This document shows, piece by piece, positions 1 through 14,133 of a stretch of DNA of 64,000 nt. The notes under the pieces were generated by a model that saw nothing but the letters and a program-made list of their open reading frames with translations, was not told where the DNA came from and did not search any database. Source of the stretch: a phage; sequence record PZ496581.1, one strand, 5' to 3'. Numbering within the stretch: the stretch's first letter is position 1; every line of letters begins with the position of its first letter. Both the position numbers and the translations under genes were made by a program.

Positions 1-231
1 CCAGTTACTAATATATCCACGGTCTAATAGATAAATCTTAGTAGGGTCTAAATAATTCAACATCGTTTCGAAACAGCCAACTTCATTTCGAGACTTAACA
101 TCGAAACGTCCATCAACTGTTCGTTTAGGGAAATCAATCTTTACATATCTTTCACTAATTTCCATTATGTCATTAATGAAAGTTGTTTTACCAGCATTAT
201 CCGGGCCATCTACTAAAATAATTTTAGCCAT
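1..231 (-). CDS. P-loop kinase-like protein, N-terminal 77 aa only (gene runs past window start)
   Basis: ATG at 229-231 (minus); translation MAKIILVDGPDNAGKTT has a Walker A motif; start overlaps stop of upstream gene. Confidence 0.55.
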   Translation of the reverse strand, partial: MAKIILVDGPDNAGKTTFINDIMEISERYVKIDFPKRTVDGRFDVKSRNEVGCFETMLNYLDPTKIYLLDRGYISNW

Positions 232-232
232 T

Positions 233-1132
233 TTATTCCTCGATTACGACATCTTCGTATTTAGGTATATTATACGGTGAAGAAATTAAAGCATTAAAGT
301 AGATGAACTCACCAAGACCTGGATGGAATACTTCTTCAGGATTTTCGAAATATTGAATCTTCGGACGTCCTTTAAGAATTTGATAGTACTCAGTTTTAGT
401 TGGTTTAAAAATTCGAATCAACGCTTCTTCAGGATACTTATTTCTGTCGAAGCTATTATTTGGATCGGTTATATAAAGCGGTTGACCTAATTGAATTGCA
501 CATTCAACCACTTGTTCAAAACGATAGCACGGGTCACTAATTCGAAATGGATGAAAAATACCATCTAGATGAATAGGAGCCAAATCACCTACAAGACGCT
601 GCATGATGGAAGGACGTATAACTTTCTGGGTTATGATAATCTTATTACCATCGGCACCAGCGTTAACCAGCACTTCTTTTTGACGTTCATTCAACACAGT
701 AGTTTGAAGTGAACGATTAACCGACAACATATCGGTTTTTAAGAATTCGTCAATATAAAAACGTGGTTTATTAGGGTCTGCAGTGATATTGAAATTGAAT
801 TCCACATCAAAAGCGCCGTCATATCCGGTGATATCTGTGATTAGAAAATCACAATCATAATAAGCAATTAATGAATCAACCACAAATTCATTTTCAGACC
901 AGAAATATTTACGAGTGTTATACGCGTTATCTTTATACCATAATGGAACAAACTTAAATTCTGGAAAAAGACGTTCGCATTCTTTAATATCAGATGCATT
1001 ACGTGGATATGTAATCACATCACCCGGATTAGCACGGTGCAAATGAAGTTGGAAGTTGCCATCCTTAAGGATAGCATACTGTCCAGTTTCATAAGACCGC
1101 ATACTCAAAATAGGTACGCGGAAAATAGCCAT
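233..1132 (-). CDS. hypothetical enzyme, 299 aa; candidate sugar transferase of the modification cassette
   Basis: ORF with ATG at 1132 overlapping stop of the gene 42-like ORF; no motif recognised. Confidence 0.55.
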   Translation of the reverse strand: MAIFRVPILSMRSYETGQYAILKDGNFQLHLHRANPGDVITYPRNASDIKECERLFPEFKFVPLWYKDNAYNTRKYFWSENEFVVDSLIAYYDCDFLITDITGYDGAFDVEFNFNITADPNKPRFYIDEFLKTDMLSVNRSLQTTVLNERQKEVLVNAGADGNKIIITQKVIRPSIMQRLVGDLAPIHLDGIFHPFRISDPCYRFEQVVECAIQLGQPLYITDPNNSFDRNKYPEEALIRIFKPTKTEYYQILKGRPKIQYFENPEEVFHPGLGEFIYFNALISSPYNIPKYEDVVIEE

Positions 1133-1848
1133 TAGTCAAGGAATCCTTTAACATAATCAAAATCACGTTCAAACACATGGGCACTTACCATGGTATGAGT
1201 ATAATCACCAACTTCTACACCACATTCGTTAGCGATATAATGAAGTAATTTTCCTTGGAGATAAAAATCCAACTGCATAACAACAGCACAGTTCTGAGAA
1301 CGCATATGACAGTGGGTATAAAGCTTACCATCACGAATATAATAAGTCACTGAGTCAGTACATGGATATTCAAGCGTTTCGTCTGAATCAAGCAAAGCCT
1401 GATCAGAACTTTCTAGAATTTGGAACACAACTCTTCGAGAGTTAGGCTTCTCTTTAAGTTCTTTTAGAAGAGCTGGTAATTGGGCCGCAATGCGAGGACC
1501 ATAGAAAGTGTTGAAGTTCGCCGGCAAAACATCTGATTTTGGTTTAGAAATAAATTTAGCGACATTAGGATATGCCTTAAACGCTTCTTCTGCGTTGGTA
1601 CCACCAGAAATCATAAACTTCCAGAAGTCTTCGGCATATTCATAAGAGATGCGGTTAATACGTGGGTCGGTCATTTTGAATGATGATGGAGTGTCAACAA
1701 CTACTGTCATAGACCCAATTTCATTACAACGTCCAATACGAGAATCAGTTACGAATTCCGGGTTTTCTAAAATTTCACGATTGACTGCTTTAAATGCGGT
1801 TTGAAAATCTGCGGCTTTGATATATTTCATTGTGTTATGTTTTCCCAT
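1132..1848 (-). CDS. 42: dCMP hydroxymethylase-like (thymidylate synthase fold), 238 aa
   Basis: ATG at 1848 with GAGG SD; PCTDSVTYYIRD...MRSQNCAVV resembles the T4 gp42/TS active-site region (recalled). Confidence 0.75.
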   Translation of the reverse strand: MGKHNTMKYIKAADFQTAFKAVNREILENPEFVTDSRIGRCNEIGSMTVVVDTPSSFKMTDPRINRISYEYAEDFWKFMISGGTNAEEAFKAYPNVAKFISKPKSDVLPANFNTFYGPRIAAQLPALLKELKEKPNSRRVVFQILESSDQALLDSDETLEYPCTDSVTYYIRDGKLYTHCHMRSQNCAVVMQLDFYLQGKLLHYIANECGVEVGDYTHTMVSAHVFERDFDYVKGFLD

Positions 1849-1890
1849 GTTTACCTCAATACAATTTATTATATACTCAATTCGTAAAGC

Positions 1891-2130
1891 TTATTTGAAT
1901 TTCTTGACAATGTTGATATAACGTAAAGCTTCAGCATCGATACTTCCAAGAACACTATGAAGAAATGCATCAGCGTAGTATTCCAATTGAACAGGTTCTT
2001 TAATCACTTTAGCCGCTTTAGTTTCAAACAGGCCCATCAGGGCCTGTTTAAGAATTTGTTCATTAGTGTTCAGTTTCATAGTCAAAATCTCTTCATTAAG
2101 TTGGTGGTTAAAAGTTTTTCTAGAAATCAT
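1891..2130 (-). CDS. hypothetical protein, 79 aa
   Basis: ORF track; start overlaps stop of upstream gene. Confidence 0.45.
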   Translation of the reverse strand: MISRKTFNHQLNEEILTMKLNTNEQILKQALMGLFETKAAKVIKEPVQLEYYADAFLHSVLGSIDAEALRYINIVKKFK

Positions 2131-3287
2131 TCCGGGTACCTCAAAGCGTCATCAGAGTTAGTTATATCAATAATAGATATAGAGTTTTCTGCTAACCCGT
2201 TTTTAGATAATTGACGTTTATAATATCTTTCACAATATGTACACGTCGTCCCGCAGATTTCATTAGCACAATCGAAATCTGGATGTCTGAACCACCTTTT
2301 TTCTAAAAAGCCATCTAACAAAGAGGTTTCAATATTTACTGTATGTGAAAACTCAGTTTCGTTTTCAAGAGTGAAAATAGTCTCTAAAGGCTTCCACAGT
2401 TCTAACAAATTACCTTCAAACTTTTCAGAAGCGTATGCTTCAAGAACTTTCAAAATGTAGTCTGTGCTACCTGTACGTCCTGAAACTTTGAATTGAGTGA
2501 TACCAATATCATTATAAAGTTTCAAATCTTGAGGACGAACAAAACGAGTTCTCAACCAGTTAAATGGGTCTGTATCACGAGCTTTAATACAGTGCTGCAT
2601 AGGATATCCGTTTAAGGATTTAGCATCATCAGCTGTAACATCAGTACTATGGAAAATATAGCAAGAGTCACGATAGCTACAATGTGTTGTATACCCTTTA
2701 CCAGCATTAGAACAGAACTCATTTACAAGAACTTCAAATATTATATTGTTCTTATTGCAAAACTCTGCTGCACGCTTCAGGAAAGAAACTGAACGGTTCT
2801 TATGAATTCCACAGCAGACCTTTTTGATATTATATTGGTCATGCAAGTATTTGATTTGAGTTACAGCATCGACATGTAGAATTGTTGAAACTTCAATCTC
2901 AATGTCTTTATTGACTTCACGAACAATTTCCATAACAACAGGGTTAGCGATAGTAATACGCCATACGCCTATTGACCAAAGATACTGAACATAATCCTGA
3001 ATAGCTTTCTTCTTCCACTCAACTAGTTCTCTTTTTGAACCAGGATTTATCGTGTTGAGTGTATAGTTAAAGCAAATACCTAATTCGTTACAACGTTTAA
3101 CGTAATCTTCTAACATCTTTTTGTCAACGTCAGGAAGCCTAAAATCAGGTCTGGCTGCTACAAAAGCCATTTCTCTTGTAGAGCCGTATACTTCATTTAT
3201 CAAGCTATTAGGATAAGTTTTATTGAGCTCTACGATTTTATCAAGAAGAGCTAAATCAAAATTCGTTCCGATTTTAAAAGTATTCAT
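2127..3287 (-). CDS. Cys-rich enzyme of unknown function, 386 aa (C-terminal CX4CX3CX2C cluster)
   Basis: ATG at 3287; long ORF inside the sugar cassette; metal-binding-like Cys cluster CANEICGTTCTYC. Confidence 0.6.
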   Translation of the reverse strand: MNTFKIGTNFDLALLDKIVELNKTYPNSLINEVYGSTREMAFVAARPDFRLPDVDKKMLEDYVKRCNELGICFNYTLNTINPGSKRELVEWKKKAIQDYVQYLWSIGVWRITIANPVVMEIVREVNKDIEIEVSTILHVDAVTQIKYLHDQYNIKKVCCGIHKNRSVSFLKRAAEFCNKNNIIFEVLVNEFCSNAGKGYTTHCSYRDSCYIFHSTDVTADDAKSLNGYPMQHCIKARDTDPFNWLRTRFVRPQDLKLYNDIGITQFKVSGRTGSTDYILKVLEAYASEKFEGNLLELWKPLETIFTLENETEFSHTVNIETSLLDGFLEKRWFRHPDFDCANEICGTTCTYCERYYKRQLSKNGLAENSISIIDITNSDDALRYPE

Positions 3288-3347
3288 TTTTTTTGCATCT
3301 CGCGTTAATTGATGTGATGGTTTTTTTTGCAGGTCTTACTTAAATTA

Positions 3348-3734
3348 TTATAGATTCGGTTTATATGATTTAAATGTTTCGAATTCGCCTTTATTCATAA
3401 GAGCTTTGAATTCGTCAGGACGCATAGCTTTGTCGTCGATAATCCAATCATATACTGGTTTATGTGTTAGCAAATTATGGTACTTCAAACCAATGTTTTC
3501 CAAGTTCTGAATCAGACTTGGGAGAATGTCAATTGCTATACGACCAGGACCTACTGACTTCATACCACGAGCAGTGTAAAGCGTTATGGTATGCCCTGCA
3601 TCATACAGGGCATTAATGGCAGACACCATTTCGACGTCTGGTTTGAAGTTCACGTAATCACGATTGTTATTCCATTCCGTGATGCAATCATCGACATCAA
3701 AACAAAGATTAAGCATGTTTTCTACACGGTGCAT
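3348..3734 (-). CDS. HAD-superfamily phosphatase, about 128 aa
   Basis: FDVDDC (motif I), TLYTARG (II), HKP (III), WIIDDK (IV); ATG at 3734 overlaps upstream stop (TAATG). Confidence 0.7.
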   Translation of the reverse strand: MHRVENMLNLCFDVDDCITEWNNNRDYVNFKPDVEMVSAINALYDAGHTITLYTARGMKSVGPGRIAIDILPSLIQNLENIGLKYHNLLTHKPVYDWIIDDKAMRPDEFKALMNKGEFETFKSYKPNL

Positions 3735-5419
3735 TAGATTCGTTCCCATTGATGAGTGATATCGCCACCGATTGGACGATAGGAAACACCAGTTTCTTTA
3801 TCAGTTAGTACCCATTTACCAGGATTTTTTGTAATCAGAGTAGCCGTTACAGGTTCTGCTACGTCATAACTAATAGAGCCGTCCTGAAGTACACGGCCCA
3901 TGTTACGTAATTGCTTAGTCAGAAGTTCCATACCTTTATAATATGCGGCTACCGCTTTAAGTGGATTATTCTTGAAATAACCACCTAATGCAATCCAGAT
4001 AATTGCCACTGCCAAATGATGATACTCGTTAAACGAACTCATCTTTCCATATTTGTAAACTAATGGATTGATGTTAATAGTCACATTACAAGTTGTTTCA
4101 TCAATAGTAAACTGTCCCCAGGTCGGATTAGCATTGAATTCATCATAACCTGAAACAGCATAAAGCACTTTAGCTTCATCATACAATTTTGGCCCGTAAA
4201 TCTTGGTTTCGCCAAAATATCCACGAGGGTCGATAAACTTGACTTCGCCGTTATCAGTAATCATAGTATTACTGAAGTTCGGGTCACCATGAATAACAGA
4301 GTACTGTCCCTGAGAACGGTTATGATAACGAATAAGATGTTCTAAAGCTTGTTTCAACATTGGCTTCAGACGTCCAATCTTAGTGTAGTTCACATGTGTG
4401 ATTTTACCAAATGAATCAATCAATGGTTGAATGCTTTCACAACGATCAATAACTTTCGTATAGAATTCTTTAGTGAAATCACGACGAACAGTTTCAGGAC
4501 TTACAAAATAAGTGTCTGTGCTGAATTTCAGTGCATCTAAAATTGCATCAACAATTTGTGGACGAGCAAGACTTGATTTGGATTTAATATATTCAAATGC
4601 TGGCTTACCTTTAATGCGTTCCATTTCAAAGTTATTTTCATTAACAGAAACTAACTGAGGAACTGAATCTGATTTCACTTTAAGATACCACGAAATCTCA
4701 TCTTTCTGAAGAGCTCGTCCCTGTTCGGTTAATGCGAATTTAGTTACAGTTTCTTCACCAATTTCAACTGCATTAAAACTACGATTAAGTTCACGAACTT
4801 CATGAGCTTTTTCAAGTTTAGGCATATCACCTAAATCAATTAGATTCATAAGCTCTGATTTATTGAATGCGCTGGCGTAAAGGAATTCTACGAAATCACG
4901 TCCTTTGCAGTATTCATGAATTTCTTCATCAGTAGAACCCATATAGAATTCCCAGTCTTTGAACTGATAAATTCCTACAACATTACCACCTGTTGAACCT
5001 ACGTTAGTGATATTTTCACCGTCGAAATTATATCGACATTCGTCACCCTTAACATAGATTGCGTTAACATTCCAAGACCATGAACCAAAATCAGGAATAA
5101 TATCACACCAGTTAACAATTACATTATGGCCGTCTAAATCTTTGTGTAATTTAGCAAGAGCATAAGCAGAACCATACGCTTCATCAACTGTACGAATAGT
5201 CACATTGAACCCTTCTTGCTCACAATAAGCTCGAACAGTTTCAGCAAATTTTGAATGAACTACTACAATAATTTCATCTGCGCCAAGGTCAGAATAAATT
5301 GTATACAAATTGCTCAGAATAGTGTCTTGTTTATAATTCACAAGAACTTTTGGAATATGATGCGTTATTGGATACAAACGAGTTGCCAGTCCAGCACCAA
5401 GAATAACAGCTTTTTTCAT
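3734..5419 (-). CDS. bifunctional sugar-1-phosphate nucleotidyltransferase (N-term) / APH-type sugar kinase (C-term), 561 aa
   Basis: N-term ILGAGLATRLYPIT matches the RmlA/GlmU-type GxGTRL motif; C-term IHGDPNFSN...FIDPRG matches the Brenner kinase motif; ATG 5419 with GAGGA SD. Confidence 0.85.
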   Translation of the reverse strand: MKKAVILGAGLATRLYPITHHIPKVLVNYKQDTILSNLYTIYSDLGADEIIVVVHSKFAETVRAYCEQEGFNVTIRTVDEAYGSAYALAKLHKDLDGHNVIVNWCDIIPDFGSWSWNVNAIYVKGDECRYNFDGENITNVGSTGGNVVGIYQFKDWEFYMGSTDEEIHEYCKGRDFVEFLYASAFNKSELMNLIDLGDMPKLEKAHEVRELNRSFNAVEIGEETVTKFALTEQGRALQKDEISWYLKVKSDSVPQLVSVNENNFEMERIKGKPAFEYIKSKSSLARPQIVDAILDALKFSTDTYFVSPETVRRDFTKEFYTKVIDRCESIQPLIDSFGKITHVNYTKIGRLKPMLKQALEHLIRYHNRSQGQYSVIHGDPNFSNTMITDNGEVKFIDPRGYFGETKIYGPKLYDEAKVLYAVSGYDEFNANPTWGQFTIDETTCNVTININPLVYKYGKMSSFNEYHHLAVAIIWIALGGYFKNNPLKAVAAYYKGMELLTKQLRNMGRVLQDGSISYDVAEPVTATLITKNPGKWVLTDKETGVSYRPIGGDITHQWERI

Positions 5420-5460
5420 GTTGAAGTCCTCATTGGTAAGTAGGAGTATTGTACACTATT

Positions 5461-5604
5461 CTAGTTAAAGCATTCATACTTTGCTTGTAGTCCAATCATA
5501 ATCCATCCAATTACAAGTGTTGGAATCATTACCGGAGCCGTTAAGCTCCAGTAGATAGTCATGACAAGCATCAATAGTAAAAGTCCTATTGTTATTGCTT
5601 TCAT
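5461..5604 (-). CDS. small hydrophobic membrane protein, 46 aa (below ORF-track cutoff)
   Basis: Own translation MKAITIGLLLLMLVMTIYWSLTAPVMIPTLVIGWIMIGLQAKYECFN; ATGA overlap with SIS gene stop. Confidence 0.4.
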   Translation of the reverse strand: MKAITIGLLLLMLVMTIYWSLTAPVMIPTLVIGWIMIGLQAKYECFN

Positions 5605-6236
5605 TGTTCGCCTCGTAACATGGCACCTAGTGCACCGCCTGGATGGAACTTAAGGAAATCATTAGAGGTAAATCCACGTTCAGACGAAAGGTTGATAGCA
5701 AACGTATCGATAAGTGCTAACAACAATGTAGTGGACATCGTCGGAGCTAAAGAGTTCTCGTCAACTTCTACCGCGATACCGGTGCAGAACGTATAATCAA
5801 AAAGAGCTTCGTATTCTTGTGGAATGTCAGGGTTACAATGTAACAGAATCTGTTTAACCTGAGGACGAATCATACGAAGATGTTTAGCAACACCTATCAT
5901 TTCTTCAGTCTTACCAGAACGACTGATGTGAACTAATACATCATTAGGTGCAATAAATCCTGCGTCACCATGAGAATAATGCCCGGTGTTCAAATACATG
6001 CTAGGAATACCTAGTGAAGCAAAAGTCTCGGAAGCTTTAGTTGCGATATTAGCATTCTTACCAACACCTGTAATAATTACCCGGCTTTCATAATTACTAA
6101 GTCCAGGGCGTCGAAGAGTTTCTAGAATAGCATTATAACGAGCAGGGTTTTGACTAATTACTTTAGCCATAGTGGCAAGAGATGAAGCTTGTTTTACGAT
6201 TGCGTCAATAGCGATAGTAATAGGAGTAGTTTTCAT
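5601..6236 (-). CDS. SIS-domain sugar-phosphate isomerase (KdsD/GutQ-like arabinose-5-phosphate isomerase candidate), 211 aa
   Basis: ITGVGKNANIATKASETFASLGIPS...HGD...ISRSGKTEE matches the SIS phosphosugar-binding pattern. Confidence 0.8.
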   Translation of the reverse strand: MKTTPITIAIDAIVKQASSLATMAKVISQNPARYNAILETLRRPGLSNYESRVIITGVGKNANIATKASETFASLGIPSMYLNTGHYSHGDAGFIAPNDVLVHISRSGKTEEMIGVAKHLRMIRPQVKQILLHCNPDIPQEYEALFDYTFCTGIAVEVDENSLAPTMSTTLLLALIDTFAINLSSERGFTSNDFLKFHPGGALGAMLRGEQ

Positions 6237-6276
6237 ATTTCTCTCATTTAATTAGTTGGCCGTCCTTGGCATTATA

Positions 6277-8988
6277 TCAAAAATCAAACATATCGAACAG
6301 AGATGCTTTCTTCTCGTAATCGAGTTTAGCTGCTGATGTGAATCCTTCAAGTGGTTTAATAAATGTCTTCTCAAGGAGAACAGTGTAGTCCATCCAATGA
6401 AGTACATCGTCTTTAATTAAATCTGTGATTTCAGTACCAGAAGGCCATGCGATACATTTATCACCGAATGGGTTTCCTTCACGTAAAGGCAGAACATATA
6501 CTTTTTCACCTTCTACAACTTGCGGTGCATCGATATTACCTTTGATAGCCCGGTTATACGTCAGAATTCCACGAATATGGAACGGGCATTTGGGACCAGG
6601 GAATCCACCGACGTCATATTTAGCAATGTTATTCGCAGAAGATACCGACGCGATGCTAATATAATTCAACTGACGGAATTCTTTTTCAAACTCTTTAAAA
6701 TATTCTTGTAATGATTCTTCACCTTCCTGAAGCATACGACGAATACATTCCTTAAGAGCTTTCTGTACTGCTTTAGGAGTCGAAGATTTCTGTGTTTCGA
6801 GACCCATGATTTTAAGCTTAGGTTCAGCGTATCTGGTTCCTTCCATATCCCATACATTCAAGGCATAACGTTTCTTACCTGTCCAAAATCCGCCAATACC
6901 TTTAGAACCAAGCGGAGGCCCAGCGATAGCTTCTCGGTCCATGAACATTAAGTGTTGTTTATTGTTCATGTATTCACACATTTCACGGAAACCTCTATCA
7001 ATAGCTGGTTCCATACGTTCACGTGCAAACTTATCTAAGAAGTCTACCCAATGGTTGGTATCACGGAATTTAGATTCACCAACCTTATCGATAATTTTAT
7101 CGGCAGATACGTAAATAGAGTCTGTATCACCATAAAGAACGAAAGCTTCACCTTCTGTACCACAAACTTCATTCAGATATTCATTAACTTTACGTTCAAT
7201 CCACTGTAAAGCCATTTGTCCGAATGTTGTGATTGCAGTAGCATTACGCAAATCATAATAACGGAACCAAACGTTTCCAAGTGCACCATAAAGTGAGTTG
7301 ATGAGCAATTTACGGTTAATTTGTGCAGTCATACCTGCAACTTCAGTACGTTGAGCTCTAAACAACATTTCATTAAGAGATTTAGCAGACAACTTTTTAA
7401 TCTTTTCTTTAATCTCATCGCTGAAGTCGAAACGATAATCAACATCTAATGGTTCGTCAACAGAAAGATTAGGATTATGCAATGCCTCTTTAATTATTTC
7501 ACCATTACGTTGAGCTGCAAGCATGTAACCTTTATGTTCTTTACGTTGATTAAAGACCTTAGTGATTTCAGTTGGAACTACACCATCACGGTCTTTATAA
7601 TACATCATGCCGTTAGGAGAACAACTGTACACATCTGAAGGACGTTCAGCGATTGCGTTAATATAATCATGCAATGGAGCTACTTTAAACGTTCCTGCTA
7701 TTGTTTCCGGGCTAATATTCACTTGGCGAATAATACTTGGATACAGAGATGTAAGGTCGAAACTCATTACATATTTGTATCGATTTGGAATAGGTTCCTT
7801 AACAAAAGCGCCAGGATAAGGTTGAACCGGGTGAGAACGACCTTGTGGAATCACCTTGTTCTGTTCTTTAAGGCTATTAAAAATAATAGCATCCCATGTT
7901 TTAATTGGGCCAAACACAGATTGAATCTGTATCTTAGCATAATAACCCATGTCCAAACTCAAGTTGATGAACTGACGCTTAGCATCAATTTGCAATACAC
8001 GATACACATCGATAATGTTATAAGAAATATATCGTTGGTGATTGCTTTCACGAAGTTTAGAAATAGGGCCGTCATATTTCAGTTTACCAACGTTCAATTC
8101 AAATTCTGAAATGTAATCCAGAGAATACGATGGTTGATTGGTAAAAGAGAATTTTTTGTAAAGGTCAATGTAATCAAGAACAGAGATACCGAACAATGTA
8201 ATGATTTCACGAGAACCATACATGTTTTCGATAACTTTAACACGAGTTTTACGATGTGGTGATAAACGTTTCGCAGTAGATTCGCCAAAAATATTCTTGA
8301 TTCGGTTATACACATATGGAATATCGAATGACTCAACGTTCCATCCAGTCAAAATGACAGGAGTTTTCTGTTGCCAGAAGTTGAGATATTCCATCAACAA
8401 TTCTTTTTCGTTATCGAACGGTATATAAATGATTTTATCGATAATTTCGGATGGAACTTCATCACCACCTTGTTCTTGAAGCTTAGCCGCAATTTCGATA
8501 GACCATTCTTCTACATTACCATACGGAGAATTCAATAGATCAAATACGTAGAACCTGTCGTCAATTGAGTCATAATGGGTGATAGCATCAATCGGATGTT
8601 TTGCTTGTGATGGCTCAGGGAACCCATCCGGAGATGTTACTTCGATGTCGAAGTTAGCCACACGAATTTTTGTATGGTCGTATTTGATTTCATAGTTATA
8701 AGTGTCAGACAAATACGCCAATTTGAAATCGTCCATACCAAGTGCTTCAAGTCCGATATCTTCCATGCGTTTAATCCATTGGGAGGCATCACGCATATTA
8801 GCGAACAACTTACGAGTACACGGCTTACCGTAGATATCGAAATATTTCGTAGCCTGACTTTCTGGACAATGAGCAAACAGTGATGGTTTATATTCTACTT
8901 CACGAGTACGTTCACGGCCATTAGAATCGATGTAACGTTCAAAAATTGAATCACCAATCTGTTCAACCGTTAAGTAAAATTCTTTCAT
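6277..8988 (-). CDS. 43: DNA polymerase gp43 (family B), 903 aa
   Basis: Near-identity to T4/RB69 gp43 as recalled; exo motifs FDIE, NIIDV; YGDTDS polymerase motif. Confidence 0.97.
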   Translation of the reverse strand: MKEFYLTVEQIGDSIFERYIDSNGRERTREVEYKPSLFAHCPESQATKYFDIYGKPCTRKLFANMRDASQWIKRMEDIGLEALGMDDFKLAYLSDTYNYEIKYDHTKIRVANFDIEVTSPDGFPEPSQAKHPIDAITHYDSIDDRFYVFDLLNSPYGNVEEWSIEIAAKLQEQGGDEVPSEIIDKIIYIPFDNEKELLMEYLNFWQQKTPVILTGWNVESFDIPYVYNRIKNIFGESTAKRLSPHRKTRVKVIENMYGSREIITLFGISVLDYIDLYKKFSFTNQPSYSLDYISEFELNVGKLKYDGPISKLRESNHQRYISYNIIDVYRVLQIDAKRQFINLSLDMGYYAKIQIQSVFGPIKTWDAIIFNSLKEQNKVIPQGRSHPVQPYPGAFVKEPIPNRYKYVMSFDLTSLYPSIIRQVNISPETIAGTFKVAPLHDYINAIAERPSDVYSCSPNGMMYYKDRDGVVPTEITKVFNQRKEHKGYMLAAQRNGEIIKEALHNPNLSVDEPLDVDYRFDFSDEIKEKIKKLSAKSLNEMLFRAQRTEVAGMTAQINRKLLINSLYGALGNVWFRYYDLRNATAITTFGQMALQWIERKVNEYLNEVCGTEGEAFVLYGDTDSIYVSADKIIDKVGESKFRDTNHWVDFLDKFARERMEPAIDRGFREMCEYMNNKQHLMFMDREAIAGPPLGSKGIGGFWTGKKRYALNVWDMEGTRYAEPKLKIMGLETQKSSTPKAVQKALKECIRRMLQEGEESLQEYFKEFEKEFRQLNYISIASVSSANNIAKYDVGGFPGPKCPFHIRGILTYNRAIKGNIDAPQVVEGEKVYVLPLREGNPFGDKCIAWPSGTEITDLIKDDVLHWMDYTVLLEKTFIKPLEGFTSAAKLDYEKKASLFDMFDF

Positions 8989-9016
8989 TTAATTTCCTTT
9001 AGACGAGTTATTGTCT
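8989..9016 (-). promoter_or_regulatory. candidate gene 43 translational operator (hairpin AGAC-8 nt loop-GTCT plus SD AAAGGA)
   Basis: Hairpin and SD directly 5' of gene 43 ATG; T4-family gp43 autoregulates through such an operator. Confidence 0.4.
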
Positions 9017-9035
9017 TTTGTTTGTTGATGAACTT

Positions 9036-9063
9036 ATTATACTCCAAATGGGACCGAAGTCCC
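9036..9063 (-). promoter_or_regulatory. -10 TATAAT plus GGGAC-UUCG-GUCCC hairpin between regA and gene 43
   Basis: Minus-strand TATAAT at 9036-9041; tetraloop hairpin 9050-9063. Confidence 0.4.
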
Positions 9064-9069
9064 ATTGCT

Positions 9070-9438
9070 TTAATTACCAATTGTATATTTTGCTTTCAAA
9101 GTCCAGTCATCTTTCTGTTTAAAAGAGATAACACGGAAGTTATTAGTCAGGCCAAACAGATCTTCACGAGCAGAGTCTTCAATAACAATCAAGCCCCAGT
9201 CTTCAAGCAACTGAGCAATCGAATCACGTCGCTGATAGTCTTCACCATCAATATCAACCTGACGTCCGTCCATACGCAGCATTTCTTTAAAGTGGACGAT
9301 GTAATATTTACCTTGCTTTTGGAGGATATGACAGGACTGATAAAGAACTTTATCCTTGTTATTAGCGATGCCCATACGGGTCAGAGTCTCTTTGACTTTC
9401 AGAAAATCTTCGGGGTTCTTCAATTTAATTTCGATCAT
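9070..9438 (-). CDS. regA: translational repressor RegA, 122 aa
   Basis: MIEIKLKNPEDFLKVKETLTRMGIANNKDKVLYQSCHILQK matches T4 RegA as recalled; start trimmed to MIEI. Confidence 0.9.
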   Translation of the reverse strand: MIEIKLKNPEDFLKVKETLTRMGIANNKDKVLYQSCHILQKQGKYYIVHFKEMLRMDGRQVDIDGEDYQRRDSIAQLLEDWGLIVIEDSAREDLFGLTNNFRVISFKQKDDWTLKAKYTIGN

Positions 9439-9440
9439 TT

Positions 9441-10004
9441 TTACCATTCCAATGCTAATTTTTTAAATTGTTTTTGTTCTTTCACATTTTTTGTAACTTC
9501 TTTGAGAAACTCATCAGTGACCATGGCCTTCAGTTCTTTAAGGACTATTGGCAACTTGTTATTTTTTTCAAGGAGCCGCTTATACTCGGTAGCATCATTC
9601 ATGTTGATTGTGTAATGTTTCATCAACAGTTTGATAACTAGTAACTCTGAAGTGTCTTCGACTAGTTTAGCCCATTTAGAGAATCGTCGGCCACGTGGAA
9701 TTGCCGCCATCATATAGTTGAAGTGCGCTTCATCACTTAATTCAGAACCGACTAAGTTCATCATGTAAACGGCTGGCATACATTCTGGGAACTGGGATAA
9801 TGAGTTCTCAACCATAAATTTTGAGTAGTCGACCTGAGCAATTGACATAGATTTCTTTTCATTAATAGCATTAATGATTTTAAAGAATTCATTCTCAGGT
9901 TTTTCTTTAAACATGTCAGCACATTTTTGAATCGCATCAGCGTCGTTAGACTTCCATGCAATTTGGTGCTCGTTAAGTTGGACGTCATCATCAAATAAGT
10001 TCAT
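9441..10004 (-). CDS. 62: clamp loader small subunit gp62
   Basis: 187 aa; position between regA and 44. Confidence 0.85.
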
Positions 10005-10005
10005 A

Positions 10006-10968
10006 TTATTTCCAAGTCAGTTCGCAGGTCAGTTGAAGAAGCATATACATAACATGTAATTCAATATTACTTGCTAATCCATGAAACTTATTATTTTCGC
10101 CTGCAATTTCATAAAGCGAAATAATACTTTTACCTGGTGCAACTTTGTCATAACACTCAGAAACTAATTTATCGATGAACCATGAATAATCAGCGGCATA
10201 TTTTGGAGCTAACGCACGAAGCTGTTTGATATCTTTATTTTTCATTGCTTCTATGACATCATCTACCGTGCCACGATCATTGGTTACAATCGACAAAATA
10301 CCTGCATCAAGAACACCTTTAGACGAGTACTGGTCTAATTGACCAATTGTACGTCGAAAGTCCGGGAAGTTCTTTTTAACCAGAGCTGCAACAACTTTCA
10401 TATCAGCGATTTCGATATTTTCATTCTTACAGATTTCAACCATACGATGAATCATTTTCTTCATCATTGAGATTTTATCTTCTTCGGTTGGACGTCCGAA
10501 TTCGATAACTCGACAACGACTACGTAATGGTTCAATAATTCCATCGATGTTGTTGGCAGTAATAATAATAGAACAGTTACTAGAGAATTCTTCCATGAAT
10601 GTACGAAGGTGACGTTGTGATTCGGCGAGGCCACTACGGTCAAATTCATCAATAACAATAACTTTAGGTTTGCCTTCCATTGAGACTGAACGAGCGAATG
10701 CAGTTAACGGACCACGCACAAAATCAATCTTACAATCAGAACCGTTGACGAACATCATTTCGGCATTGATATCATTACATAATGCTTTTGCTACGGTTGT
10801 TTTACCTGTACCAGGAGAAGGAGAGTGCAAAATAATATGAGGAAGTTTTCCTTTAGATACTAAAGACTTGAATGTTTCATGGTCATACGCGGGCAGAATA
10901 CATTCGTCAATGGAAGAAGGACGATATTTCTGTTCTAGAATGTGTTCTTTGGAATTGATAGTAATCAT
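10006..10968 (-). CDS. 44: clamp loader large subunit gp44 (AAA+)
   Basis: Walker [11 protein letters not shown]; Walker B VIVIDEFD; 320 aa. Confidence 0.92.
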
Positions 10969-11043
10969 GTAATTTTCCTCATTATCATTAAACTGGAGGA
11001 TTTCTCCTCCATAATCGTATCACAATAAACGTAAAGCTTTGAC

Positions 11044-11730
11044 TTAGAAGTCGTGAGTAGAATCGGCTTCCATCGCAATAACATAACTTACTTGAGAGCT
11101 TTCAAACTTGGCTGCAACTTTATCACCAGCTCCCCACAACATTACTTTATAGTTACCTGGCTGGATTTTCATATTAGCCATATTGATTACGAAGTTAAAG
11201 TTGTTAGAACCATCATAATCGGTAAGAGTTAAAGAATACTTAGGACGAGTTAGTCCAGAATCTTCAACTTTATTATAGCCATTGATAACAATTTTACCAT
11301 CTTTATTTGTAATAGCAATTGTATCAATCTGAAGACCACGTGAAACTCGAAGCAATTGTTGAAGGTCTTCAACTTTAATTTCAGTAATCACAGAAGCCAC
11401 TGGGAATTGAATTGGCTTATTAGGAAAAACAATGGTGCTCTTGTCGGCAGCAGGCCAATAAACTGTGGAACGTGTATCTGCAATTTTAATATTGCCATCA
11501 GTGTGCATTGAAATTTCAGCATCATCAGACACTAGACTCAAAATGCTTAAGAAGCTATTCAAATCATAAAGTGCTACGTCAAAATCAATTTCATCAGAGA
11601 TATTTGCTTCCGCATAAGTGGTGCCATTAACTGCACGAGTCATAATAAATTTACCTTGACTCAGCAGAATGCCAGAGTTAATAGAGGCAAAGTTTTTCAG
11701 AATAGCGATAGTATCTTTAGACAGTTTCAT
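11044..11730 (-). CDS. 45: sliding clamp gp45
   Basis: MKLSKDTIAILKNFASINSGI matches T4 gp45 N-terminus; start trimmed to MKLSKD. Confidence 0.9.
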   Translation of the reverse strand: MKLSKDTIAILKNFASINSGILLSQGKFIMTRAVNGTTYAEANISDEIDFDVALYDLNSFLSILSLVSDDAEISMHTDGNIKIADTRSTVYWPAADKSTIVFPNKPIQFPVASVITEIKVEDLQQLLRVSRGLQIDTIAITNKDGKIVINGYNKVEDSGLTRPKYSLTLTDYDGSNNFNFVINMANMKIQPGNYKVMLWGAGDKVAAKFESSQVSYVIAMEADSTHDF

Positions 11731-11772
11731 TTTATTTCCTTTCAAGACAATTCAAAGTTTATAACAAATTTA

Positions 11773-12189
11773 TTATGCAGCAACCATCTGCTTTTTAATA
11801 GCTTCAGGCAGTGATTCAATATATTCTGGAATTTTAGAAGCAACAATTTCGCCAGCTGCAATTAGTTGTTCGTCGGCATCAACACAGTAGAAATCTTCTA
11901 GACGCTCAGAACCATCTTTATCAAGAACGATTTTTCCGCCGGCTTCAATAGAATCTTTATAGTGCTTACGCATCAGATGAATCCACATATCAGATACATC
12001 GTTATCAATAAAACCATAAATCATAAAACGAGTTTCTTGTGGCAAAGATTGGAGTTTTTTAGCACTTGCGTCATCACAATGCAGGACCCATGCTTTACGA
12101 ACACGATTATGGTTATGTGGGTTAGCGTCAGTACGGATAGAAGTAACTTTCAGATCAGCAGCAGTGAAACCTTTAGCAGTAGTAAACAT
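11773..12189 (-). CDS. rpbA: RNA polymerase binding protein RpbA-like, 138 aa
   Basis: Size and position immediately upstream of gene 45. Confidence 0.6.
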   Translation of the reverse strand: MFTTAKGFTAADLKVTSIRTDANPHNHNRVRKAWVLHCDDASAKKLQSLPQETRFMIYGFIDNDVSDMWIHLMRKHYKDSIEAGGKIVLDKDGSERLEDFYCVDADEQLIAAGEIVASKIPEYIESLPEAIKKQMVAA

Positions 12190-12201
12190 ATTATTTCTCT
12201 C

Positions 12202-12402
12202 TTATTCGTAGAAGTCGGTAACTGTCCATGCAGAATTGCGATTAGACGTTATTTTATTATACTCATCTTTAAAAGCAGATTTGAGCATTTGTTCAGTAAC
12301 AATATGTTCTTCACCTGAAAACGTATTGGTCAAAACATATTTTTTAATTTCAGGGGCAACTAGAAGATGTTGTCCGGTTGAATACTCCATGTTGTTCTCC
12401 AT
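12202..12402 (-). CDS. hypothetical protein, 66 aa
   Basis: ORF track; position of T4 45.2. Confidence 0.45.
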   Translation of the reverse strand: MENNMEYSTGQHLLVAPEIKKYVLTNTFSGEEHIVTEQMLKSAFKDEYNKITSNRNSAWTVTDFYE

Positions 12403-12444
12403 TTAATTTGATGTGGTCATTATAACCACATCGTGTTAAAGCGT

Positions 12445-14133
12445 TTATGAAACAGTCATTACCGTAAATCGTCCAACTTTGCTCATTTGAAGATGTTGTC
12501 CATAACGTTGAGGGTCATGGTCTCGATGAGAGATAATGAACACGTTAGTATTTTGTAAACTTCCAAGAATAGTATCTATAGCCTTAACAGCTTCAGAATC
12601 TACAGCGCCGTCAAAAACCTCATCAAGAATCAACGTGTTGATTTTAACACCAGAGACCTTTTCAGCAATATCTCGCCATGTAAACAACAATGCGATATCG
12701 ATACGCGCTTTTTCGCCTTGACTAAATGAAGCATAACTAAAATCTTCACGGCCACGTGATTTTATAGATTCATTGAATTCTTCGTCAATAGAAAACACGT
12801 AATCAGCTTCCATGATTTTAAGATAATGGTTAATCTGCTTGTTGAACAGAGGCACATATTTTTTAATGATAGCACCTTTAATACCAGAATCTTTTAACAT
12901 ATCTGTGATAATACCACGATGGTATTTTTCAAGAACGATATCTGATTTTGTTTTAATGATTTTATCAAGTTCTTTTTGAAGCAAAGCTATCTCATCGGCA
13001 TGGTCGATAAATTCAGCCGAGGCTTGTTCTATTGCAGCTTTAACTTTCTTAGCTTTATCAATAGTGGCAATCATTGCTTGTTTCTTGGTACGAATATCAG
13101 ATGCAAGGTCCTGTTTAGTCTTAACATTAGCTCTATATTCGTCCACTAGGACACTCAGATTATCTCTGTGACATGTAAGTTGCTCGAATGAGTGATTACA
13201 TTCGTGAAGCTTATCGGTAATCTTAGAGACAATAGGATCACCCTGGTGCAACTGTGATGCACAAGTAGGACATGTACCACCATCATGATACATCTTAATA
13301 ACTTTGTTATATGAGTCAATTTTAGATTTAATCAAGAATGCTTCTTGTCCGATCTTGTTGAACGCCTCAGTAGGGTCTTCGTCAAGAACGATATTAAGTA
13401 GACGCTCGTTAGCTTCTTCAATTTCTGCTTTTAATGAACGAGCTTCTTTGGCTAGGTCGTCATACATATTCTGTAGACGCGCTACATTATCACCAGATAA
13501 TTTCTTTTGACGTTCGATATTCTCGTTATAAATCTTAATTTGTTGGATAACACCATCTTTCTTGGCATCGAGAACTTGTCCCTGGGAATTAAGTTCTCGA
13601 ACTTGAGACTTATTGATTTTATCCATTTCAGCGAGTGTGCCGACTTCTAAAAGGTCTTCGACAAGTTTTCTACGAGCAGGGGTGCTAAGAGCCATGAAAG
13701 GGGTATACCCTGCCGTCCCAAGCACAACGATTTGTTTAAAAGACGCGTATGACATTCCGATGCTACGTTCAAATTCTTCTTGGAAGTCACGACTGCTGGC
13801 AGATTCATCAAGACGAACACCGTCAACGGAGATTTCGAAAATATTGGGCTTTTGGCCACGTCTAATGAAGTATTTTTTATCATCGAATTCCATCCAAAGC
13901 TCAACTAAGAGCTCTTTCTTGTTCGTGCTATTAATGATTTGTCCTTTCTTAACATCACGAAATGGTTTACCGAAAAGTCCGAAAGTAATGGCTTCTAACA
14001 TCGTAGATTTACCACCGCCATTTTTACCAGTGATTAATGTCTTTTGGACTTTATCTAATTGGATATCAATAGGATTCCCACCTACCGACATGATGTTTTG
14101 ATAACGAACACGATTTAATTTAAATGATTTCAT
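12445..14133 (-). CDS. 46: recombination endonuclease subunit gp46 (Rad50/SbcC-like ATPase)
   Basis: Walker A GKNGGGKST; coiled-coil middle; 562 aa. Confidence 0.93.
   Translation of the reverse strand: MKSFKLNRVRYQNIMSVGGNPIDIQLDKVQKTLITGKNGGGKSTMLEAITFGLFGKPFRDVKKGQIINSTNKKELLVELWMEFDDKKYFIRRGQKPNIFEISVDGVRLDESASSRDFQEEFERSIGMSYASFKQIVVLGTAGYTPFMALSTPARRKLVEDLLEVGTLAEMDKINKSQVRELNSQGQVLDAKKDGVIQQIKIYNENIERQKKLSGDNVARLQNMYDDLAKEARSLKAEIEEANERLLNIVLDEDPTEAFNKIGQEAFLIKSKIDSYNKVIKMYHDGGTCPTCASQLHQGDPIVSKITDKLHECNHSFEQLTCHRDNLSVLVDEYRANVKTKQDLASDIRTKKQAMIATIDKAKKVKAAIEQASAEFIDHADEIALLQKELDKIIKTKSDIVLEKYHRGIITDMLKDSGIKGAIIKKYVPLFNKQINHYLKIMEADYVFSIDEEFNESIKSRGREDFSYASFSQGEKARIDIALLFTWRDIAEKVSGVKINTLILDEVFDGAVDSEAVKAIDTILGSLQNTNVFIISHRDHDPQRYGQHLQMSKVGRFTVMTVS

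Follow-up and report, generated by a model that had tools for sequence, protein, structure and literature searches.

The window that we analysed, a stretch of 64,000 nucleotides deposited under PZ496581.1, comes from a T4-type, RB69-like phage (Mosigvirus). The gene under study lies there directly downstream of the DNA polymerase gene gp43 (Table 1), and the 7 kb around it are 98-99% identical to many Mosigvirus coliphages. RB69 and HY126 carry the same gene in the same place, directly after gp43 and before gp54 and gp53:52. The sequence-only reading had described the gene as coding for a 211-aa KdsD-like SIS isomerase without CBS domains, and its boundaries proved to be exact, with one SIS domain and no CBS domain in the product. 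The RB69 counterpart (ORF055c/gp55, NP_861745.1; 211 aa) is 96.7% identical to the window protein and that of HY126 (XAN60481.1; 211 aa) is 97.6% identical, so that few substitutions separate them, and several deposited phages encode a protein that is 100% identical. The assignment as an arabinose-5-phosphate (A5P) isomerase is already known: GenBank labels RB69p055 'arabinose 5-phosphate isomerase; similar to ... GutQ', and papers of 2018 and 2026 have proposed the role. What our analysis adds is a correction concerning the neighbouring peptide, the dispensability of the isomerase in some lineages, and a lead that connects a U32-family gene with chorismate mutase.

Table 1. Features of the isomerase region in the window and related features in other phage loci (handles beginning with L).
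Feature	Locus	Coordinates	Strand	Remarks
gp43 DNA polymerase, 903 aa	window	6277..8988	minus	isomerase directly downstream, same strand
Predicted A5P isomerase, 211 codons	window	5601..6236	minus	ATG..TGA; single SIS domain; orthologue of RB69 gp55/ORF055c
Hydrophobic peptide, 47 aa	window	5461..5604	minus	homologue of T4 imm-42 intercistronic ORF and RB69 gp54
Bifunctional sugar-1-phosphate nucleotidyltransferase (N-terminal) and kinase-like (C-terminal) protein, 561 aa	window	3734..5419	minus	RB69 gp52:53; HY126 AfhE orthologue
HAD-type phosphatase	window	3348..3734	minus	RB69 gp51; HY126 AfhF orthologue
Peptidase-U32-family protein, 386 aa	window	2127..3287	minus	RB69 gp50; Pfam PF01136, E 7.3e-11
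79-aa ORF	window	1891..2130	minus	RB69 gp49; slot of chorismate mutase in related phages
Thymidylate-synthase homologue, 238 aa	window	1132..1848	minus	RB69 gp48 orthologue; Pfam Thymidylat_synt, E 2.3e-15
Putative DNA arabinosyltransferase 1, 299 aa	window	233..1132	minus	position of RB69 gp46:47
Peptide homologue	L002 (T4)	3728..3877		
Peptide homologue	L003	4001..4144		
Peptide homologue	L004 (JS10)	4322..4432		
Split regions of RB69 reference	L018	7319..9005; 11602..12502		gp53/gp52; gp47/gp46
Phosphatase tied to 'phosphoheptose isomerase' label	L001	7347..7733		as window 3348..3734
Phosphatase tied to the same label	L018	9005..9391		
Phosphatase tied to the same label	L006	8676..9062		
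Phosphatase tied to the same label	L012 (F48)	7783..8142		
Region with P-loop kinase-like gene instead of isomerase	L012 (F48)	6001..11668		
Region with P-loop kinase-like gene instead of isomerase	L004 (JS10)	4440..9175		
U32 locus	L008	4992..6502		
U32 locus	L009	4983..6394		
U32 locus	L012 (F48)	8675..10077		
U32 loci	L013, L014, L016, L017			
DAHP_synth_1 family gene	L016	7145..7891		after U32 homologue
Counterpart of 79-aa ORF	L005 (HY126)	8287..8409		annotated as only 40 aa

In the 211-aa protein, Pfam recognised a single SIS domain (PF01380, E 8.2e-10; 39 bits, cut-off 25) over residues 51-181, and no CBS domain was detected. The best NCBIfam models were KpsF/GutQ (8.8e-32), KdsD (3.8e-30) and GutQ (2.6e-22), in line with the earlier claim of a SIS signature typical of A5P isomerases. 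These matches cover the SIS half of the models only (about positions 2-153 of 268), and because the CBS half is missing the scores fall under the curated cut-offs (TIGR00393, 110.7 vs 203.7 bits; KdsD NF008141, 105.3 vs 505). The chain ends at residue 211, directly after the HPGGALG motif; KdsD runs on from there into two CBS domains. E. coli KdsD, GutQ and KpsF (TIGR00393) have a homologous SIS catalytic domain, and the reaction predicted for the phage protein is the same as theirs, but they carry C-terminal tandem CBS domains. Judged from its sequence, the phage protein lacks this architecture and belongs to the single-domain subclass typified by E. coli CFT073 c3406 (5uqi/5vhu) and the B. 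fragilis protein (3etn), with which it shares the single SIS domain.

Homologues of the isomerase occur in 276 phage records at 55-100% identity, and nearly all of the 142 matches in a large protein database are about 210 aa long. Since the ORF is conserved across phages, it is not a chance reading frame. The closest cellular proteins are of the KpsF/GutQ type with SIS and CBS domains (about 41% identity), and E. coli KdsD itself is 35% identical over residues 16-207 (E 1e-32); the gene is therefore no recent capture from the host.

A sequence search of the PDB returned the B. fragilis structure 3etn (9.6e-25), the c3406 structure 5uqi with bound A5P (2.4e-22) and 2xhz, the SIS domain of E. 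coli KdsD (2e-18), and GmhA was absent from the matches even at E <= 1. With a profile built from 35 homologues the same three structures led (5uqi 1e-48, 3etn 2e-46, 2xhz 7e-40), followed by Listeria 3fxa (3e-29), while PHI-type isomerases appeared at 1e-11 or weaker and GmhA was again missing from the matches. The AlphaFold (AF2) model of the protein, with a pLDDT of 96.4, has the alpha/beta SIS fold, and Foldseek placed 2xhz, 3etn and 5uqi on top, with no GmhA among the top 50 matches. By the criterion of the sequence-only reading, its proposal would be contradicted if GmhA or some other SIS enzyme with different substrates gave the best structural match; the KdsD, c3406 and B. fragilis structures came first instead. 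With GmhA, a sedoheptulose-7-phosphate isomerase, the phage protein has the generic SIS fold in common and nothing nearer.

Residues K60, H89, E112, E157 and H198 are invariant in an alignment of 35 sequences, made up of the phage family members and two bacterial proteins with SIS and CBS domains. They align with K59, H88, E111, E152 and H193 of KdsD, which we take, from the mutagenesis and crystallography literature linked to 2xhz, to be the active site. The 2xhz chain is a K59A mutant and aligns exactly at the lysine of the phage protein. Taken with the searches, these observations place the isomerase nearer to the biochemically or structurally defined A5P isomerases than to other SIS enzymes. 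They also bear on the idea that the protein acts on another phosphosugar, such as glucose-6-phosphate or a hexulose phosphate, in the manner of Listeria 3fxa or of archaeal PHI. We regard this as very improbable: in the profile search the known A5P isomerases surpass 3fxa by 11-20 orders of magnitude and PHI lies further down, identity is 28-31% to the known A5P isomerase structures against 22% to 3fxa, the equivalent of KdsD Lys59 is kept in the phage protein but is a threonine in 3fxa, and it is D-arabinose that has been identified on the DNA. It is harder still to believe that the protein is a non-catalytic sensor or regulator that binds sugar phosphates like RpiR or MurR. The SIS domains of such regulators do occur among the weaker matches, but they are weaker by at least 15 orders of magnitude, Pfam found no DNA-binding domain in the protein, and all five catalytic-site residues are invariant in the phage and bacterial members.

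Downstream of the isomerase, the genes for the AfhE-type, AfhF-type and ThyA-like proteins and the gene at the glycosyltransferase position all lie on the same strand within 233..6236, in the order seen in RB69 and HY126. The 561-aa protein has Pfam matches to NTP_transferase and weak kinase matches, and is 96.8% identical to HY126 AfhE. The phosphatase that follows is 99.2% identical to HY126 AfhF and matches the NCBIfam model TIGR01689 for capsule biosynthesis phosphatases (E 1.9e-13); its longest ORF extends to 3749, while phages JK45 and HY126 are annotated with the ATG at 3734 as the start. The 299-aa ORF at the far end has no Pfam match, and its putative function comes from Table 1 of PMC13326640 together with its position. 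Isomerase and AfhE-like genes are linked in Mosigvirus, Winklervirus and Kanagawavirus, in Acinetobacter phage Acj61 and in the unrelated Sphingomonas phage PAU. A scan of positions 1..6500 for promoters and terminators gave sites no more numerous than in shuffled sequence.

Two further observations concern the annotation of these clusters. The AfhE-like and 299-aa ORFs are intact in the window, while the RB69 reference splits each of them (gp53/gp52 and gp47/gp46), in keeping with the published opinion that the splits in RB69 stem from sequencing errors. In several phage records RefSeq calls the HAD-type phosphatase of the cluster 'phosphoheptose isomerase'; the label is apparently a misannotation and could pass for GmhA.

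The chemistry of the modified DNA has been worked out by others. The modified bases of RB69 DNA are mono- and di-D-arabinofuranosyl 5-hydroxycytosine and not, as was earlier believed, arabinosyl-hmC (Lee, Peters et al. 2026, PMC13326640), and according to the same paper gp48 acts as a 5-hydroxy-dCMP synthase that depends on flavin and O2. As relayed in that paper, He et al. 2026 established HY126 AfhE as an A5P 1-kinase and UDP-arabinose pyrophosphorylase, and AfhF as the phosphatase that turns Ara-1,5-P2 into Ara-1-P. The isomerase heads a cluster for arabinosylated 5-hydroxycytosine DNA. RB69 gp55 was proposed to divert ribulose-5-phosphate (Ru5P) to A5P (PMC13326640), and Thomas et al. 2018 (PMC6024577) had proposed the same arabinose-supply role for ORF055c, which they saw as equivalent to a SIS domain that is fused to the AfhE-like region in Butyrivibrio proteins. 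We found no enzyme assay of any phage member of the isomerase family in the accessible literature.

Family membership, fold, synteny and the conservation of the active-site residues were observed directly, and from them we infer that the 211-aa protein has isomerase activity and contributes to the flux of arabinose. The gene very probably encodes a single-SIS, CBS-less A5P isomerase that turns host Ru5P into A5P and so feeds arabinose onto the 5-hydroxycytosine of the phage DNA. On this route, the isomerase would convert D-ribulose-5-phosphate of the host pentose-phosphate pathway into D-arabinose-5-phosphate, and the AfhE-type 561-aa kinase/uridylyltransferase would phosphorylate it at C1 to give Ara-1,5-P2. 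The AfhF-type HAD phosphatase would then remove the 5-phosphate to leave Ara-1-P, from which the nucleotidyltransferase domain of the 561-aa protein would make UDP-D-arabinofuranose. Phage glycosyltransferases would finally place arabinose on 5-hydroxycytosine in the phage DNA, and this hypermodification blocks restriction enzymes. The suggestion that a phage A5P isomerase taps the host pentose-phosphate pool for a pentose destined for DNA, made before from the letters alone, is supported by the fold, the active site, the gene context and the D-arabinofuranose on RB69 DNA. The isomerase would then be the entry point from central metabolism into a hypermodification that blocks restriction enzymes, a route of relevance to phage therapy and anti-defence strategies.

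A genuine A5P isomerase could also serve the host envelope, supplying precursors for Kdo and LPS or for capsule, and not DNA modification. Bacterial members of the family do serve Kdo and capsule synthesis, and the c3406 and 3etn proteins belong to pathways for capsule or Kdo-type sugars; the RB69 record likens the isomerase to a capsule-expression protein; and the adjoining phosphatase matches a capsule-biosynthesis model. However, the cluster has no homologues of KdsA, KdsB or KdsC. In phages with arabinosylated DNA the isomerase is consistently linked with genes for the ThyA-like hydroxylase, for AfhE- and AfhF-type proteins and for DNA glycosyltransferases, and bacterial proteins in which AfhE-like and SIS regions are fused (Thomas 2018, PMC6024577) also speak against an envelope role, to which we give a very slim chance. 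In contrast to its bacterial relatives, the phage isomerase would be devoted to DNA modification.

The isomerase gene is not present in every cluster of this kind. Phage records with AfhE-like genes number 369 and those with the isomerase 276, and a SIS gene is absent from the clusters of Klebsiella phage F48 (Marfavirus) and coliphage JS10 (Dhakavirus), in which AfhE-like, phosphatase-like and ThyA-like genes and a gene at the glycosyltransferase position are all present. These two clusters must use A5P from the host or a different sugar. The Gram-negative hosts of F48 and JS10 make A5P for Kdo, and the phage isomerase therefore most likely boosts the supply or frees it from the host. Since phages with the same downstream genes do without it, the isomerase is probably a flux booster that gives independence from the supply by host KdsD and GutQ, and not an indispensable step; the step is dispensable when A5P comes from the host. 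We suggest more tentatively, and would put it at somewhat under an even chance, that the isomerase is an optional booster free of regulation, which for want of CBS domains would drain Ru5P to A5P whatever the LPS status of the host, and that F48 and JS10 would rely wholly on host KdsD/GutQ. If so, the A5P supply of the host would be a hidden determinant of DNA protection in phages that lack the isomerase. We did not find the idea of a regulation-free flux booster stated in the accessible papers. In place of the isomerase, F48 and JS10 have a gene whose product, 178-179 aa long, resembles P-loop kinases.

The stop codon of the isomerase is overlapped by a small ORF. The sequence-only reading had described a translationally coupled membrane peptide of 46 aa, and the ATG of the ORF does overlap the isomerase TGA as ATGA, with GAGG 6 nt upstream, and the product is strongly hydrophobic (Kyte-Doolittle means over 17 residues of 1.2-2.3 across residues 1-40). 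However, the peptide is 47 aa long, not 46, and it is not specific to the isomerase. Homologues occur in 580 phage records, including the isomerase-less T4, VR26 and JS10, and 12 positions are invariant across T4, VR26, JS10, HY126 and the window. In T4 the homologue is an unannotated peptide of 49 aa between imm and gene 42 which overlaps imm as ATGA, and VR26 has the same arrangement; the RB69 GenBank record describes the peptide as 'similar to T4 42-imm intercistronic region'. No homologue of T4 Imm was detected in the 64-kb window, and the SIS gene therefore fills the slot upstream of the peptide. In Acj61 the AfhE-like gene comes directly after the isomerase with no peptide between them, and the F48 cluster also lacks the peptide. 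We rejected the idea that the peptide is a partner dedicated to the isomerase, such as a membrane tether, on the basis of its presence in T4, VR26 and JS10 without the isomerase and its absence beside the isomerase of Acj61. It is a generic and widespread small membrane ORF of T-even phages, and its coupling to the isomerase is positional, not functional.

The U32-family gene of the cluster offers a different lead. Its product, gp50 in RB69, is called just a 'sugar or heterocycle reductase' in PMC13326640. In 222 phage records from Enterobacterales and Shewanella hosts the protein shows identities of 80% or more, and in these genera it is more tightly conserved than the isomerase or AfhE. The Acj61 cluster lacks it, and the organisms listed with U32 matches include no Acinetobacter phage, while isomerase and AfhE are present in 57 Acinetobacter phage records. 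A PDB sequence search with the U32 protein gave zero matches, and a MAFFT alignment with E. coli UbiU and UbiV reached about 20% identity, which is too poor for mapping Fe-S cysteines.

In 48 phage records a type II chorismate mutase gene (Pfam CM_2, E 1e-9 to 1e-11) stands between the U32 and ThyA-like genes, and in those annotated records that we inspected the two genes overlap at the U32 stop codon, the chorismate mutase gene running across it. The product of chorismate mutase is prephenate. The U32-family protein RlhA makes 5-hydroxycytidine in 23S rRNA and requires prephenate and Fe-S clusters (PMC5727448). From these associations we hypothesize that the phage U32 protein may be a prephenate-dependent, O2-independent pyrimidine C5-hydroxylase, which could serve as a backup for the O2-dependent gp48 in anaerobic growth; we found no paper that states this idea. 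In the window the slot of the chorismate mutase holds the 79-aa ORF, which overlaps the U32 stop and matches no family. We rejected it as a degenerate chorismate mutase, as it had no Pfam match and hhalign gave a probability of 0.1%.

More distant homologues of the U32 protein, with 50-58% identity, were found in phage-like contigs. Two of them adjoin a dCMP deaminase gene, two lie near a gene of the thymidylate-kinase type and a UDG gene, and in a third context, seen in two contigs, a deoxyribonucleotidase and a deoxynucleoside kinase are alongside. In L016, a phage-like metagenomic contig, the U32 homologue is followed by a DAHP_synth_1 family gene (DAHP synthase/KDO8P synthase type) and a sugar epimerase, a neighbourhood that may be a further connection with the shikimate pathway or with A5P chemistry.
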